Of a stretch of DNA of 42,836 nt, positions 4,088-42,689 are shown piece after piece. Position numbers and translations under genes: made by a program. The first letter of the stretch is position 1. Each line of letters begins with the position of its first letter. Below the pieces are notes generated by a model. It saw only the letters and a list, made by a program, of their open reading frames with translations, searched no databases and was not told the DNA's origin. The stretch spans positions 1 through 42,836 of IMG/VR virus record IMGVR_UViG_3300037313_000201; one strand, written 5' to 3'. Source of the DNA: a virus. Lineage: Duplodnaviria > Caudoviricetes.

Positions 4088-6190
4088 ATGCCGACGTTTG
4101 TTCCTGAAATCACCAAAGCGTATCAGGATGATCCGCGTACGAAGCTGGCGCAGGCTCTCGTACAAACCGGCGCGAACACCGGCCCCGTAGCTGGCGGCGG
4201 ATGGGCGTGGGCTGACGGTATTGCGCGTGCCTTGTCCGGCCTTGCTGGCGGCTATGTACAGCACAAGCAGGAACAGAAGTTCGAAAAGCTGGATCAGGCC
4301 GCGAACTCCGATGCGAAGAAGGCCATGAACGACGCCATTGCGCAGGCCCTTGCCGGGAACGGTGCAGCATCGGCACCGGCAGGCCCGCCGCAAGCCGCCG
4401 CCGCCGTGCCTCAGGGCGGCCCTGTACCGGCTCAGCAGCCCGCGCAGGCACCGGTACAGGCACCCCCGCCGCAGCCGGACCCTCTGGCACCGCTGCCGGA
4501 CGGCTCACAGGCCCCACAGGGCGCTCCGCAAGGCATGCCGCCCGCGTCCATCGCTCAAGCGCCTCAGGCGGCTCCTGCGGCCCCTCAGGGGCCTTCCCCG
4601 GCTGCACAGGCCATGCCCGCCGCTGCCCCGGCTGCTGCCGCTCAAATCGCCGCCGCGCTTGGCGGGGGGAGCGCGGCTAACCCCGCAACCCCTTTCGGGC
4701 AACCGAAGCCGCGCGTAAGCGGCGCGAGCGTGGTACAGGCTATGCTCCCGATTACACGAGCTACGGAGAGTAACAACAAAGACTTCACCGCGTCCGGTAC
4801 TCCTGTTACTAGCGTCAAGGGCGCTAAGTACGCCATGCAAGTCATGCCTGCCACGGCCCGTAAGCCGGGGTTCGGCATTCGCCCCGCCGCGAACGATAGC
4901 CCGGAAGAGTACAATCGCGTCGGCACCGAACTGCTAGGCAAGTTGGTGGAGAAGTACGGCGACCCGGCAAAGGGATGGGCCGCGTACAACGCCGGTACAG
5001 GCCGCGTTAATCATGCAATCGCCAAGCATGGCGACGATTGGCTACAGCACTTGCCCGCCGAAACGCAAGCGTACGTCAAAAAGAACGTGGAAGCGCTCGG
5101 CAACACCGATCCGTCGCAGGGCGGGTACTACCCCGAGACGCAACAGGCGGAACTTAAGCCCACGGGTCCGATCCAGTATCAGACGCCGGAACCGGAAACC
5201 CCGACGCTTCCCGACCGTCCGGCAGATCGCGGCTCCGCGCGTTCGCTTCGCCTACTGGCAGGCCGTAATCTGTTGAACGCCAATCCGGCGCTGTTCACGC
5301 GCGCCATGGAAATGCTCGATACCGGCATGGGCGAACAGTTCGCCGCCGACCGTGACGCGCTTGCGGAAAACAACAACCGCGACGATACTCTGTACAAGGC
5401 TGGCATTGACGATCATTTCAATGCCACTAGCCAGAAGCGCTCGGCGGCGTATGATACGCGCGGTCGCGAGCAGACGGAAGGCTACGCGTACGGTCGCGAA
5501 ATGCGTGGTTACGCTCACGACGATAACAACCGCGAGGACACGCAATCGTTCACGGCGGGCGAGAGCGCCAAGGATCGCGCAGCTACTGCGGCCAACATAC
5601 AGGCGCAGATTGAAGGCAGGCACGAGGACGCGCAGACGAAAGCCGCCGCACGTATGCAAAATTTCCTGAACACGCCTGCCGGTACGCGCATGTACCAGCA
5701 GACGACGGACACGATGAAACAGAACGATGATATCGTGAACCAGATAAATTCGTTCATGGAACTTAACGAGGCGCATCCGAACGCCACTGGCGGCTTCATT
5801 ATGAACTCCGCTCCCGAGTGGATCGCGCGTAACATGTCGCAGTCCACTCAGGCGATGGATGCGATTACAAACAAGATCGCACCGCTTATGCGCCAAGCGG
5901 GGCAGGGTTCCATGTCCGATAGCGACCTTAAGAAGTTCGAACGTTCCGTGCCGAACGTACGTAACCTCATTGGCGCGAACCGCCAAACGGCTGCGCGGCT
6001 CAAGGCGGGCATGGCGCGCATCAACGATTTTGAACTGCACAAGCTGCAAGCCGCAGCGGAAGGCCGCCAAGTGCAGTTCCTTCAAGAATGGAACATGTAC
6101 AAGAGCCAAGTTCCGTTTGAGAAGGGTATCAGCTTCGACGACTGGAAAAGCAGCGTACCGCAGTACGGCGCAGACGGGAAGCGTAAGTAA
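4088..6190 (+). CDS. Internal virion protein with lytic transglycosylase (SLT) domain
   Basis: SLT motifs TES, GAKYAMQVMPATA and AAYNAG.G, with a P/A/Q-rich linker. Confidence 0.8.
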   Translation: MPTFVPEITKAYQDDPRTKLAQALVQTGANTGPVAGGGWAWADGIARALSGLAGGYVQHKQEQKFEKLDQAANSDAKKAMNDAIAQALAGNGAASAPAGPPQAAAAVPQGGPVPAQQPAQAPVQAPPPQPDPLAPLPDGSQAPQGAPQGMPPASIAQAPQAAPAAPQGPSPAAQAMPAAAPAAAAQIAAALGGGSAANPATPFGQPKPRVSGASVVQAMLPITRATESNNKDFTASGTPVTSVKGAKYAMQVMPATARKPGFGIRPAANDSPEEYNRVGTELLGKLVEKYGDPAKGWAAYNAGTGRVNHAIAKHGDDWLQHLPAETQAYVKKNVEALGNTDPSQGGYYPETQQAELKPTGPIQYQTPEPETPTLPDRPADRGSARSLRLLAGRNLLNANPALFTRAMEMLDTGMGEQFAADRDALAENNNRDDTLYKAGIDDHFNATSQKRSAAYDTRGREQTEGYAYGREMRGYAHDDNNREDTQSFTAGESAKDRAATAANIQAQIEGRHEDAQTKAAARMQNFLNTPAGTRMYQQTTDTMKQNDDIVNQINSFMELNEAHPNATGGFIMNSAPEWIARNMSQSTQAMDAITNKIAPLMRQAGQGSMSDSDLKKFERSVPNVRNLIGANRQTAARLKAGMARINDFELHKLQAAAEGRQVQFLQEWNMYKSQVPFEKGISFDDWKSSVPQYGADGKRK

Positions 6191-10423: not shown

Positions 10424-10720
10424 TTGGCGGGGGATAGCATGGATGCGGAAAGCCGCGTGAAGCTGGCCGAAATCGGCGGCGACATTAAGCGCATTTTCGA
10501 CTTCATTACAAGGCAGGCACAGGATCAGGCGCGCGTCGATCAGCGCTTGAACCACCATGGTGAGCGCCTTACCGCAGTCGAAGCCCATATCAACAAGAGC
10601 GCTGGCGAAGCGCAGGGCGTTGGTAAGACGGTGAAGGTTATGTGGGCCGTACTTGGCGGCTCAGGCGGCGTAATCGTGGCGGGCGTTGCCGCGATCATCG
10701 CACGGGCACAGGGGTTGTAA
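10424..10720 (+). CDS. Holin-like membrane protein (coiled coil plus C-terminal TM)
   Basis: Strong SD GGGGGAG, C-terminal hydrophobic helix, immediately upstream of the endolysin. Confidence 0.55.
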   Translation: MAGDSMDAESRVKLAEIGGDIKRIFDFITRQAQDQARVDQRLNHHGERLTAVEAHINKSAGEAQGVGKTVKVMWAVLGGSGGVIVAGVAAIIARAQGL

Positions 10721-10724
10721 ACAT

Positions 10725-11222
10725 ATGGGATGCGTTACTCGGGTACTGCCGCACAAGTTCAAGCTACCGGCGCTCGGCACGCCGCGCGTAATCACGATCC
10801 ATTGCACGGCAACGCCGGAAGGTAAGCACTTTTCGGCTGAACAGATTGTCGCCATGGACGTGCAGACGTACCACCAGCCCTCGTACCACTACGTTGTAGA
10901 ACTCGACGGCTCTATCGTGAAGTGCCTGACGCTTACCGAAAAGGGTGCGCACGTACGGAACCACAATACCAGCAATATCGGCATCGGCTATGTTGGCGGT
11001 GTGGACGTGCCCGGTAAGAAGGGCAAACCGAAGGACACGCGCACCCCGGACCAGAAGGCGGCGCTGCGCGCGTTGGTCGCGGAGTTGCGCCGGGGGTACA
11101 AAACCATTACCACCGTCAAGGGTCACAGGGATTGGTCGCCCGACCTTGACCATGACGGCGTAATCGAACCGCACGAGTGGATGAAGGTCTGCCCGTGCTT
11201 CGACGTGGCGACACAACTTTAG
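10725..11222 (+). CDS. Endolysin, N-acetylmuramoyl-L-alanine amidase (T7 lysozyme-like)
   Basis: Zn-amidase motifs HCTAT, YHY, GAH, GHRD and KVCP. Confidence 0.9.
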   Translation: MGCVTRVLPHKFKLPALGTPRVITIHCTATPEGKHFSAEQIVAMDVQTYHQPSYHYVVELDGSIVKCLTLTEKGAHVRNHNTSNIGIGYVGGVDVPGKKGKPKDTRTPDQKAALRALVAELRRGYKTITTVKGHRDWSPDLDHDGVIEPHEWMKVCPCFDVATQL

Positions 11223-11235
11223 GGGAGTACGGAAC

Positions 11236-11412
11236 ATGCAGGGTAAGTTCAAAGGGTACAAGACGTACATCGTGGCGGGCCTCGCTATTCTCGGCGCGGT
11301 CGCGGGGTACCTCGACGGCGACCTCGGCAAAGTGGCGGCGGGGCAGGCCATTCTCACGGCGGTCCTCGGGGTCACGATCCGCCACGGGATCAAGACGGAC
11401 CTCGCCTCTTAA
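11236..11412 (+). CDS. Small 2-TM holin-like protein (58 aa, not in ORF track)
   Basis: MQGKFKGYKTYIVAGLAILGAVAGYLDGDLGKVAAGQAILTAVLGVTIRHGIKTDLAS with SD AGGGGAG, directly after the endolysin. Confidence 0.7.
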   Translation: MQGKFKGYKTYIVAGLAILGAVAGYLDGDLGKVAAGQAILTAVLGVTIRHGIKTDLAS

Positions 11413-33600: not shown

Positions 33601-33753
33601 ATGCAAGGCATCGATGAAGCGTACGTGTTCAATGCACGTACAAACGAAGATCGCGTTCGTGACATGCTGCGAGCGTGCTTCCCGCCGCGCCGTCCGTCCA
33701 TTCGTGCGCTGAAACTAACCGGCACGTGCCTACACCCGGCAAGGATCGGGTAG
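33601..33753 (+). CDS. Small hypothetical protein (50 aa, MQGIDEAY...)
   Basis: SD GGGG. Fills the gap, with TAGTG overlap to the next gene. Confidence 0.45.
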   Translation: MQGIDEAYVFNARTNEDRVRDMLRACFPPRRPSIRALKLTGTCLHPARIG

Positions 33754-33968
33754 TGGGCCGCGACGGATCGTTCAGCGAGACGTTCATTCTGCGGAGTGAG
33801 CACAAGCGCGTACTGGAAAATGCGCAGCAGCGCGGCGACCAGCACGCAAAAGCCGAGTTCAAGCGCGGGTACTGGCAAGGTATCGCGCAAACAGTGTGGA
33901 TCGTCGGTTTCGTGGCGCTGTTCGCGCTCGTAATCGGCTTTAATGTGGGGGCAGAGTTAGTACAGTGA
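33753..33968 (+). CDS. Tail-anchored membrane protein
   Basis: SD AAGGA. C-terminal TM VWIVGFVALFALVIGFNVG. Confidence 0.55.
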   Translation: MGRDGSFSETFILRSEHKRVLENAQQRGDQHAKAEFKRGYWQGIAQTVWIVGFVALFALVIGFNVGAELVQ

Positions 33969-34345
33969 GTTACGGGCAACAACTCAACATTTTCAAGGCG
34001 CAGTCGAACCGGTACGGGCCGGATTGGCGTGGCGTGATCGTGTGCGAAAGCCGACCGCAGCTAGACATAGCCGCGAGGGACGCTGTGGACGCGCTTGGTG
34101 GCAGTTACAGCCCCGCAGGGCAGACATTGCACATGCCGAACGGCTCCACGCTGCTGTTCCGTGTGGTTTCATGCCGCATGGAAGCCGAGCGGGTGTTCAG
34201 CGGACGCGAGTTCACACAAATTTCATGGCTGTACCGCCCGACCGGCGATCATGCCGAGTACCTAATCGACAGGGCGCGAGCGCAACTGCGGTCCCGTAGC
34301 GTTCCTGCCGCCGATTGGCGGTACGAATACTGCATGGTGCGCTAA
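33965..34345 (+). CDS. Degenerate paralogue of the terL ATPase subdomain
   Basis: Aligns by eye to terL residues ~58-155. Lacks Walker A, and the Walker B DE is replaced. Confidence 0.7.
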   Translation: MSYGQQLNIFKAQSNRYGPDWRGVIVCESRPQLDIAARDAVDALGGSYSPAGQTLHMPNGSTLLFRVVSCRMEAERVFSGREFTQISWLYRPTGDHAEYLIDRARAQLRSRSVPAADWRYEYCMVR

Positions 34346-34485
34346 TGGTAAAGCTGTTCCTTATCGCATCGGCGCTGCTGAACTTCATGTTGCTCGCCGC
34401 ACTGGCGCAACCGGAAATACAGGCCGCGTCGGATCGCATTTGTGTACCGCTGTACAATGAAACTGGCTACGAGTGTTGCCAGTGA
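34345..34485 (+). CDS. Small secreted or membrane-anchored Cys peptide (46 aa, not in ORF track)
   Basis: MVKLFLIASALLNFMLLAALAQPEIQAASDRICVPLYNETGYECCQ, coupled at both ends. Confidence 0.55.
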   Translation: MVKLFLIASALLNFMLLAALAQPEIQAASDRICVPLYNETGYECCQ

Positions 34486-34664: not shown

Positions 34665-36169
34665 TGGACGAGGAGGCGCAAACCTCTGTATTTACTCCAT
34701 GGGAGCCGCAACCGGGGCCGCAAAGTCTCGCAATCGCCGCGCATTTCGTCACCGAAATCATGTACGGTGGTGCACGTGGTGGCGGTAAGTCAGACTTCCT
34801 GCTTGGCGACTTCTTACAGGACGTGTGGCAGGGTGCGAAATGGCGCGGGATCATCTTCCGGCGTTCGCACCCGGAACTCGAAGAACTAATTACACGTGCG
34901 CAGGAAATTTACATTCCGCTAGGTGCGGTGTGGAAGGCCAGTAAGAGTACCTTCATCTTTCCGTCCGGTGCAACGCTCAAAATGCGCCACGTGGAAACGG
35001 AAGAGGACTGTAATAAGTATCAGGGCCACCAGTACACGTGGATCGGCTGGGACGAACTTACCAACTGGCCGAACCTTAAGTCGTACAAGAAGCTAAAGGC
35101 GTGTTTGCGCTCCGCAGGCAACGTCCCGAACAAGCGCATACGCTGTTCCGCCAACCCCGGCGGTGTCGGCCACCATGAAGTCAAAGAGTACTTTGTGGAC
35201 CCGGCACCGAAGGGCATGGAACTCATTACGAATACCGACGAGGACGGGTTCCAGACGACGAAAATGTTCATCCCGTCGCGGGTGTACGACAACAAGAAAT
35301 TGCTAGACAACGATCCGGGGTACATTGCACGTTTGCGCGAGATTGGTTCGCCCGAACTCGTACGTGCATGGTTGGAAGGTGACTGGAATGTTATTACTGG
35401 TGCTTACTTTCCTGAGTTTAGTACTGCTAAGCATGTGCTTGAGCCTTTTGAGATACCGGGTCACTGGCTCCGATTTAAGAGTGCTGATTGGGGTACTGCT
35501 TCTCCTTTTTGTGTACTGTGGCACGCTGTCAGCGACGGCTATCAAGTACCGGGTGGACCGTTTATCCCATCTGGTGCAATCGTTACGTACCGTGAGTTCT
35601 ACGGATGGAACGGACACGCTAATCAGGGATTAAGGTGGCCCGCCGCGCGTGTCGCGCAGAACGTCGTAAAGATGGAAACTGCCGCCAACGAGAATGTTCC
35701 TACCAGTCCGGTGCGCGTAACCTACGGTGTGATCGATCCTGCCGCGTACAAGCAAGACGGCGGCCCCTCGGTTGCTGAAAGTATGGCCGTTAACGGTGCG
35801 TACTTCCGCAAGGCGGACAATCAGCGCATCAACGGTTGGAACCAAGTACGCGAGCGTCTGTGCGGAGAGGACGGCGACCCTGAAAAGGATAACGGCGTCG
35901 GCACTCCTATGTGGTATGTGTTTAAAACATGTACGCATATCATCCGTACACTACCGGCGTTGCAACATGATATAAACAACCCGGAAGATTGCGATACGGA
36001 CGGCGAGGATCACGCCCCGGATGCGCTGCGCTACGGCCTCATGTCGCGCCCGTGGAAGAGGAAGAAACCGGCGAACGATCCTCTGCCACCAAAGACCTTG
36101 CAGAATATCACTATGAATGACATTTGGGAAGCAACCGATGCGCGGGATACCGCGTACTCGCAGATTTAG
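34664..36169 (+). CDS. terL: Terminase large subunit
   Basis: PQPGPQ, GGARGGGKS, WIGWDEL, SANPGG, SADWG and EDHAPDALRYG motifs. Confidence 0.95.
   Translation: MDEEAQTSVFTPWEPQPGPQSLAIAAHFVTEIMYGGARGGGKSDFLLGDFLQDVWQGAKWRGIIFRRSHPELEELITRAQEIYIPLGAVWKASKSTFIFPSGATLKMRHVETEEDCNKYQGHQYTWIGWDELTNWPNLKSYKKLKACLRSAGNVPNKRIRCSANPGGVGHHEVKEYFVDPAPKGMELITNTDEDGFQTTKMFIPSRVYDNKKLLDNDPGYIARLREIGSPELVRAWLEGDWNVITGAYFPEFSTAKHVLEPFEIPGHWLRFKSADWGTASPFCVLWHAVSDGYQVPGGPFIPSGAIVTYREFYGWNGHANQGLRWPAARVAQNVVKMETAANENVPTSPVRVTYGVIDPAAYKQDGGPSVAESMAVNGAYFRKADNQRINGWNQVRERLCGEDGDPEKDNGVGTPMWYVFKTCTHIIRTLPALQHDINNPEDCDTDGEDHAPDALRYGLMSRPWKRKKPANDPLPPKTLQNITMNDIWEATDARDTAYSQI
35388..35633 (+). CDS. Overprinted 81-aa two-TM membrane protein inside terL (+1 frame)
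   Basis: SD GGAAGGTGA 5 nt before ATG. T-ending terL codons are concentrated under the two hydrophobic segments. Confidence 0.65.
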   Translation: MLLLVLTFLSLVLLSMCLSLLRYRVTGSDLRVLIGVLLLLFVYCGTLSATAIKYRVDRLSHLVQSLRTVSSTDGTDTLIRD

Positions 36170-42392: not shown

Positions 42393-42422
42393 AACTTACA
42401 GGCCGGGGTAAAGGGGGTGAAC

Positions 42423-42689
42423 ATGCGTAAGTCAATTCTTCTCTGTACGGTATCGTGTGCAGCGCTTGCCGTGTCGGGCTGTACGCACATGACCACCGCG
42501 CAGAAGGTGGACTTCGGCTGCGAACTCGCCGTACTTGCGGCACAGACGACCGGCACTGTCGCTCAGGTGGCTGTGCAGCATGGCGCGGACCCGGCGAAGG
42601 CGCAGAAACTGGCGGATCGTGCCGCCGCTGGCGAAAGCGTCGTTACCGCTATCTGTCTGACGGCCAACGCCGTCACGCCGGAACTGTAA
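42423..42689 (+). CDS. Lipoprotein (spanin or exclusion candidate)
   Basis: MRKS, hydrophobic core, lipobox VSG-C. SD AGGGGGTG. Confidence 0.7.
   Translation: MRKSILLCTVSCAALAVSGCTHMTTAQKVDFGCELAVLAAQTTGTVAQVAVQHGADPAKAQKLADRAAAGESVVTAICLTANAVTPEL

Follow-up and report, generated by a model that had tools for sequence, protein, structure and literature searches.

A candidate membrane-protein gene overprinted in the +1 frame of the large terminase gene of a podovirus-type genome

Does the terminase large-subunit gene (terL) of this virus carry a second gene, for a small membrane protein, in its +1 frame, and what might such a product do? We analysed the whole IMGVR_UViG_3300037313_000201 virus record (42,836 bases, hereafter the window), in which Pfam and PHROG searches identified head, tail and replication genes of podovirus type and to which near-identical DNA is carried by soil and rhizosphere metagenome runs. 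A sequence-only reading of the locus had proposed an 81-residue, two-helix protein read within terL behind its own SD; the ORF was confirmed with the same amino acid sequence, and the SD-like motif GGAAGGTGA was found where it had been placed, ahead of the ATG (Table 1).

Table 1. Features of the terL locus and other parts of the window discussed in the text
Feature	Position	Strand	Remarks
terL, terminase large subunit, 501 aa	34664..36169	+	ancestral host frame
SD-like GGAAGGTGA	35374..35382	+	made by terL codons L-E-G-D; 5 nt before ATG
Overprinted +1 ORF, 81 aa, ATG to TAA	35388..35633	+	frame +1 of terL
Hydrophobic segment 1, residues 1-21, predicted TM helix	35388..35450	+	over terL ATPase-nuclease linker
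Basic loop, residues 22-31	35451..35480	+	charge +3/-1
Hydrophobic segment 2, residues 32-52, predicted TM helix	35481..35543	+	over first predicted nuclease strands, including conserved D-W-G
Polar tail, residues 53-81, and stop	35544..35633	+	16/28 codons variable; stop position common to three lineages
Candidate +1 overprint, 59 aa, basic N-terminus then hydrophobic	18393-18214	-	inside DNA polymerase 18994-16751
126-aa gene upstream of terL	33965-34345	+	like terL residues 57-129, 30% identity, E 1e-8
Two small genes, single hydrophobic segment each	33675-33968, 34315-34485	+	between terS and terL; conserved in L002, L003
Lipobox-bearing ORF, hydrophobic C-terminal part	42417-42689	+	sole lipobox scan match in genome; Rz-like PHROG E 0.3, weak
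Lysis cassette: XhlA-like small protein (E 0.06), amidase, 58-aa DUF7439-like holin candidate	10424-11412	+	

The host gene was identified as terL by Pfam (Terminase_6N, residues 33-252), by PHROG (terL, E 5e-38) and by Foldseek matches to large terminases (D6E terminase, E 7e-11); a sequence search of the PDB found no relative of it, and cultured phages all share less than 60% terL identity with the window. The ORF begins at terL codon 242 and covers the boundary between the ATPase and nuclease parts as well as the earliest nuclease strands that the terL model predicts (E269-275 and E283-294), and the terL residues beneath its helices are largely invariant among 32 relatives.

Codon use in terL changes abruptly at this point. 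The genome, at 58% GC, disfavours T endings as had been claimed (T at 18.3% of third codon positions, T3), and 28 of the 42 terL codons over the start of the ORF end in T, comprising 16/21 over segment 1, 1/8 over the loop and 11/13 over segment 2, a recount that reproduced the earlier figures exactly. When only codons that can end in T are counted (T-able codons), T is used in 16/18, 1/6 and 11/11 of them, respectively, against 0.25 in the rest of terL, and the two helices differ sharply from the loop between them (27/29 vs. 1/6, p = 4e-4). The onset of the skew coincides exactly with the ATG of the ORF, and the region is the highest-T3 stretch of 42 codons among 19 genes, the best stretch outside terL reaching 20. 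Synonymous permutation within terL reached the T3 peak in 1 of 100,000 shuffles and the 19-residue hydrophobicity in 27 of 100,000, and matched the 50-residue hydrophobicity of the +1 frame in none of 100,000; the permutation signal at the ORF is the strongest of the 29 genes of the window.

The start signals are less telling. The SD-like motif has an anti-SD duplex energy of -11.2 kcal/mol, which makes it the strongest internal start in terL, and it beats the 19 gene starts compared, one of which is misplaced. On their own, SD and ATG are weak evidence because a conserved terL motif, LEGDWNV (LEGDW-N-V), supplies both. The SD-like motif recurs in many relatives that lack the T skew, and an ATG stands at the start site of the ORF in 17 of 30 sequences of at least 55% identity, the window included. 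Codon resampling yields the ATG by chance in 21.6% of cases and 81 open codons in 7.4%, and +1 stops are under-represented here across the terL family. Among wider relatives this ATG and an open frame seem to go together (11 of 14 frames open, where 1.1 would be expected); we did not take this as proof of an older gene, because the stop deficit is also present without the ATG, upstream of it and in distant genes.

Close relatives proved more informative. Scans for relatives covered 16/64, 14/64 and 54/64 parts and returned at least four viral contigs at 90% or above (L001, L002, L003 and L004), and many relatives with 80-95% terL identity are known from proteins only. L001 is identical to the window, and the independent lineages carrying the ORF number three (the window, L003 and L004). 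At 92-93% terL identity, L003 and L004 have the same ATG, the same TAA and the same 81 codons, retain the T sites (skews of 24/35 and 25/35), and encode products with 62% and 74% identity to that of the window, while their flanking synonymous sites have diverged by 0.27-0.41. L002 (the L008 contig; 93% terL identity) has ACG in place of ATG, 12/35 T and a stop after 64 codons; since it lacks the ORF, the +1 gene is dispensable. The earlier reading had named a +1 frame closed in related terL genes as evidence against a gene, and the frame is open over all 81 codons in L003 and L004 and over 64 in L002. Shuffles matched the 50-codon hydrophobicity in 0 of 100,000 cases for L004, 2 of 100,000 for L003 and 1430 of 50,000 for L002, and the loop has T in 0/6 of its T-able codons in both L003 and L004, as against 1/6 in the window.

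The same three lineages also allowed a comparison of synonymous variation, which is reduced in the helices (8/32 codons variable) relative to the flanks (135/254, p = 0.004) and to the loop and tail together (19/34, p = 0.013). T was retained among carriers at 85-96% of helix codons compared with 31-55% in flanks. Synonymous constraint in terL homologues, which the sequence-only reading had put forward as a check, is thus present over the helices of three lineages; it was not detected in the tail (16 of 28 codons variable), and in L002 the ORF itself is missing. At the protein level, residues vary among the three lineages at 4/21 positions of helix 1 and 12/21 of helix 2, and +1 identity over residues 1-52 exceeds that of the flanks in only one of three pairs. 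A near strain carries L3S (Leu3Ser) in helix 1; in X9/X10 it differs from the window at 3 of the 246 bases of the ORF and at 21 of 1260 outside it, a comparison that carries no information on constraint. Contigs from runs X12-X15 were mixed distant relatives.

The four-member clade is star-like and mosaic with unsettled branching, and either a gain or a loss of the ORF with respect to L002 is compatible with the data (AU p 0.128). Within L002, positions 5706-5768, which correspond to helix 1, share a series of T-ending codons with the carriers (8 T where 4.5 are expected, z 2.0); this is possibly an ORF remnant or a recombined segment.

Such mosaicism lends some weight to an account in which the T-rich block, shared through recombination or local mutation, is neutral or in decay and the ORF is under no current selection. 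A shared recombined tract may indeed add to the low divergence among carriers, and the family-wide scarcity of +1 stops at this site, the unconstrained tail and the shortness of the T block (126 nt) fit as well. An AT-rich donor, however, would have raised A along with T, whereas the four-fold sites read T15, G1 and A0 and the Glu/Lys codons are G-ending in 4/4 cases; C-to-T deamination would have spared G-ending codons, which make up 46/138 in the flanks but 1/16 in the T block; and the interhelical loop, poor in T in each of the three lineages, shows ordinary divergence (3/6). We consider a neutral tract improbable.

Still less probable is a non-coding signal, such as a U-rich RNA element, pausing codons at a domain boundary, a promoter or a packaging site. 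The skew does sit at the ATPase-nuclease junction, and it is followed by an unexplained A3 excess shared with two relatives that lack the ORF. Against such a signal, 226 other terL genes are not enriched in T3 at the corresponding site (mean z -0.17 and 0.00), RNA folding is unexceptional (z -0.54) with ordinary local folding energy, no promoter-like site or meaningful repeat was found, and L002 encodes the same terL protein without the skew.

The A excess is a separate observation. It affects four-fold sites at 35513-35632 (terL codons 284-323) and was also seen in L003, L004, L002 and L168; as L002 and L168 are without the ORF, the excess is not tied to it.

Least credible of the alternatives is a product other than the one initiated at the ATG, either a frameshift into +1 that would yield a membrane-anchored terL ATPase fragment or a selected antisense ORF (104 aa, 35617-35303). 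The +1 frame is open for 27 codons ahead of the ATG in the window and in L004, and +1 stops are scarce just upstream of the ATG in relatives too; in L003, however, a stop interrupts the +1 frame 10 codons ahead of the ATG, and the skew starts at the ATG rather than ahead of it. Neither the antisense frame nor the +2 frame stays open in L003 or L004.

We therefore return to the +1 ORF as a gene. An alternative frame with its own start and SD lies inside an older gene, terL being family-wide and the ORF lineage-restricted, and host codon use is distorted beyond chance, as expected of an overprinted gene. From these sequence comparisons we judge it likely that the ORF is a real, accessory overprinted membrane gene.

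The predicted product has two hydrophobic segments (KD 2.66 for segment 1 and 2.25 for segment 2) and was modelled as a helical hairpin (pLDDT 71, pTM 0.36, three-sequence alignment), and segment 2 is marginal as a TM helix in L003. The loop and the start of the tail both carry +3/-1 charge, a pattern that leaves the topology ambiguous and speaks neither for nor against the N-in, C-in arrangement of a class II holin. Searches with the product did not identify a family: sequence searches gave 58 candidate homologs with none at E 0.1, a profile of the three ORF sequences gave 0 matches at E 0.001 among 1.84 billion proteins, a fold search gave 0 at E 0.001, an Atlas (language-model) search gave no match, the protein collection does not contain the ORF, and PADLOC, PHROG, NCBIfam and Pfam gave sub-threshold matches only. 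A small protein with two predicted TM helices is what a class II holin would look like; neither holin-family homology (best Pfam holin match sub-threshold, E 0.15) nor endolysin adjacency was found for the ORF. A spanin subunit, which the sequence-only reading had listed among its options, does not fit a product with two hydrophobic segments and no conserved lipobox. An o-spanin of Rz1 type was rejected, as Cys17 is Tyr in L003, Cys44 is Tyr in L004 and the host gene is not an i-spanin, and so was an i-spanin of Rz type, given the two hydrophobic segments, the 29-residue tail and the lack of a linked lipoprotein.

How such a gene could arise and act can be sketched. The conserved LEGDW-N-V motif of terL would have given a ready-made SD and ATG. 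Codons of terL that mutated silently to a T ending would place T at the second position of +1 codons, and second-position T would build helices of Leu, Val, Ile and Phe at no cost to the terminase. The ORF would share a late mRNA with terL and be translated from its own SD-ATG, and its product would build up in the inner membrane late in infection, where it would help or time lysis. The idea that the ORF is locked to terminase expression is conjectural: no sigma-70-like promoter was found inside terL, but the ORF has its own start and is dispensable, as L002 shows. Taken as a whole, the chain from a real, young, translated gene to a two-helix inner-membrane protein and an auxiliary lysis factor is one to which we would give somewhat less than an even chance on sequence grounds.

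On the question of function, a lysis aid (a holin-like helper or timing modulator) is our tentative preference, by analogy and likewise short of an even chance. It is favoured because of the precedents of phiX174 E, the leviviral Sgl genes and T7 19.2/19.3; E was born by the same route according to the accessible part of PMC8227390, the +1 frame of rep harbours 21 of the 33 leviviral lysis candidates that proved active according to that of PMC7693330, and 19.2/19.3 are named as candidate lysis factors in that of PMC8365609. This prior is biased because known embedded membrane genes mostly came from lysis screens. Next to its amidase the window already encodes a candidate holin (11236-11412; among 41 homologs one is named a phage-related holin, Atlas leads 0.86-0.87), which lessens the need for a lysis role of the ORF. 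No Rz/Rz1 pair was recognised beside the lysis cassette.

Given this holin candidate and the dispensability of the gene, a late membrane product that keeps out superinfecting phages or acts against a membrane-based defence of the host fits nearly equally well, and taken by itself we rate exclusion or anti-defence as rather unlikely. Presence of the ORF in three of four close relatives of a mosaic clade suits an accessory conflict gene, and terminases are themselves defence triggers (Avs3-terminase structure). Small two-helix exclusion proteins exist, for example T4 Imm. Against such a role, the PADLOC, PHROG, NCBIfam and Pfam matches all fall below threshold, and, with no integrase or repressor among the ORFs scanned in the window and no internal promoter, lysogenic expression is unlikely; late expression would come rather late for exclusion.

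Elsewhere in the window, a second, weaker candidate overprint inside the DNA polymerase gene has a gene-wise p of 0.03-0.04, within chance for 29 genes; in L294 (89% identity) its ATG, stop position and T skew (16/36) are kept. The gene upstream of terL that resembles part of it is without the Walker A region and is 68-72% conserved in L002 and L003, and is possibly a truncated terminase paralog or decoy. The lipobox-bearing ORF suggests a Gram-negative host.

Is the terL overprint an isolated case? An earlier unrestricted scan of 732 long ORFs was dropped, many of its matches being shadows of real genes, and an unbiased permutation scan was applied to aligned terL (229) and portal (78) genes for open hydrophobic +1 stretches at p <=0.001. 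Such stretches were found in 9 of 229 terL genes vs. 0 of 78 portals (one-sided Fisher 0.07). All nine lie past codon 238, three are the carriers described above, and seven are among the 28 closest genes. They fall at two sites, codons 240-330 (the carriers, L013 and L064) and codons 335-430 (L014, L095, L096 and L288), and L268 has a T-skewed open hydrophobic +1 frame at about codons 335-430 as well. Several of these further genes with skewed +1 frames have an SD and a start; L013 (62% identity) has the same SD-ATG as the window, and its 95% relative L088 is without the skew. The portal control is mildly overdispersed (14/78 at p 0.05), and each terL case beyond the carriers rests on one sequence; for these reasons, and because any local T-rich patch gives such a stretch, the terL excess stays a lead. 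It is conceivable, and on balance doubtful, that in this podophage family membrane genes have repeatedly arisen de novo in the nuclease half of terL, with unrelated hydrophobic +1 proteins appearing several times at two sites and coming and going between phages with 93-95% identical terminases. If recurrence holds, new membrane proteins would have a hot spot in terL as they do in leviviral rep, and several unrelated proteins would become candidates for a part in lysis or exclusion. In the present clade the apparent gene birth is still polymorphic: near-identical terminases occur with and without the ORF, so a direct comparison reveals the silent changes that build the two predicted membrane helices. 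Membrane genes of this kind escape gene callers inside terL, the most used phage marker gene.

Genes inside terL are already known. T7 19.2 and 19.3 lie in the +1 frame of gene 19 (terL), and T3-like phages are annotated alike in the accessible text of PMC4925675; the hydrophobic ORF described here is unrelated to those, with no BLASTP match at E 10. Unlike it, 19.2 and 19.3 have no TM segment (max KD 1.12 and 1.02) and no T3 skew (28/70 and 18/42 vs. 188/468). In the literature covered, chiefly listings and opening lines of abstracts of openly accessible papers, no membrane protein overprinted in a terminase gene was found.

The closest likenesses lie in other gene contexts. Among class II holins and antiholins (phage 21 S and T7 gp17.5, as described in the open part of PMC9636201), the ORF product matches in size and in its two predicted TM helices, but it lies outside the lysis cassette and no dual start was seen. 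With Rz1-type o-spanins it shares being an out-of-frame envelope gene embedded in another (PMC6139136, accessible portion), but its host gene is terL rather than an i-spanin gene and it has no conserved lipobox cysteine. Leviviral Sgl genes are likewise small SD- and TM-bearing ORFs that overlap an essential enzyme gene, rep, in its +1 frame, and in the part of PMC7693330 available they are described as born repeatedly, clustered at hot spots and different between close relatives; the ORF differs in belonging to a dsDNA tailed phage, in overlapping highly conserved terL residues and in being dispensable. The phiX174 E analogy drawn in the sequence-only reading is apt: E inside D is likewise a +1 overprint that turns T-ending host codons into a Leu-rich TM domain (PMC8227390, in the text accessible), and in both products basic residues come after a hydrophobic N-terminus free of charge. 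E acts alone in lysis, belongs to a T-rich ssDNA phage, has one TM and has no homology that we found to the ORF, whereas in the window, at 58% GC, the skew is local, the product has two hydrophobic segments and an amidase-holin-like cassette is present.
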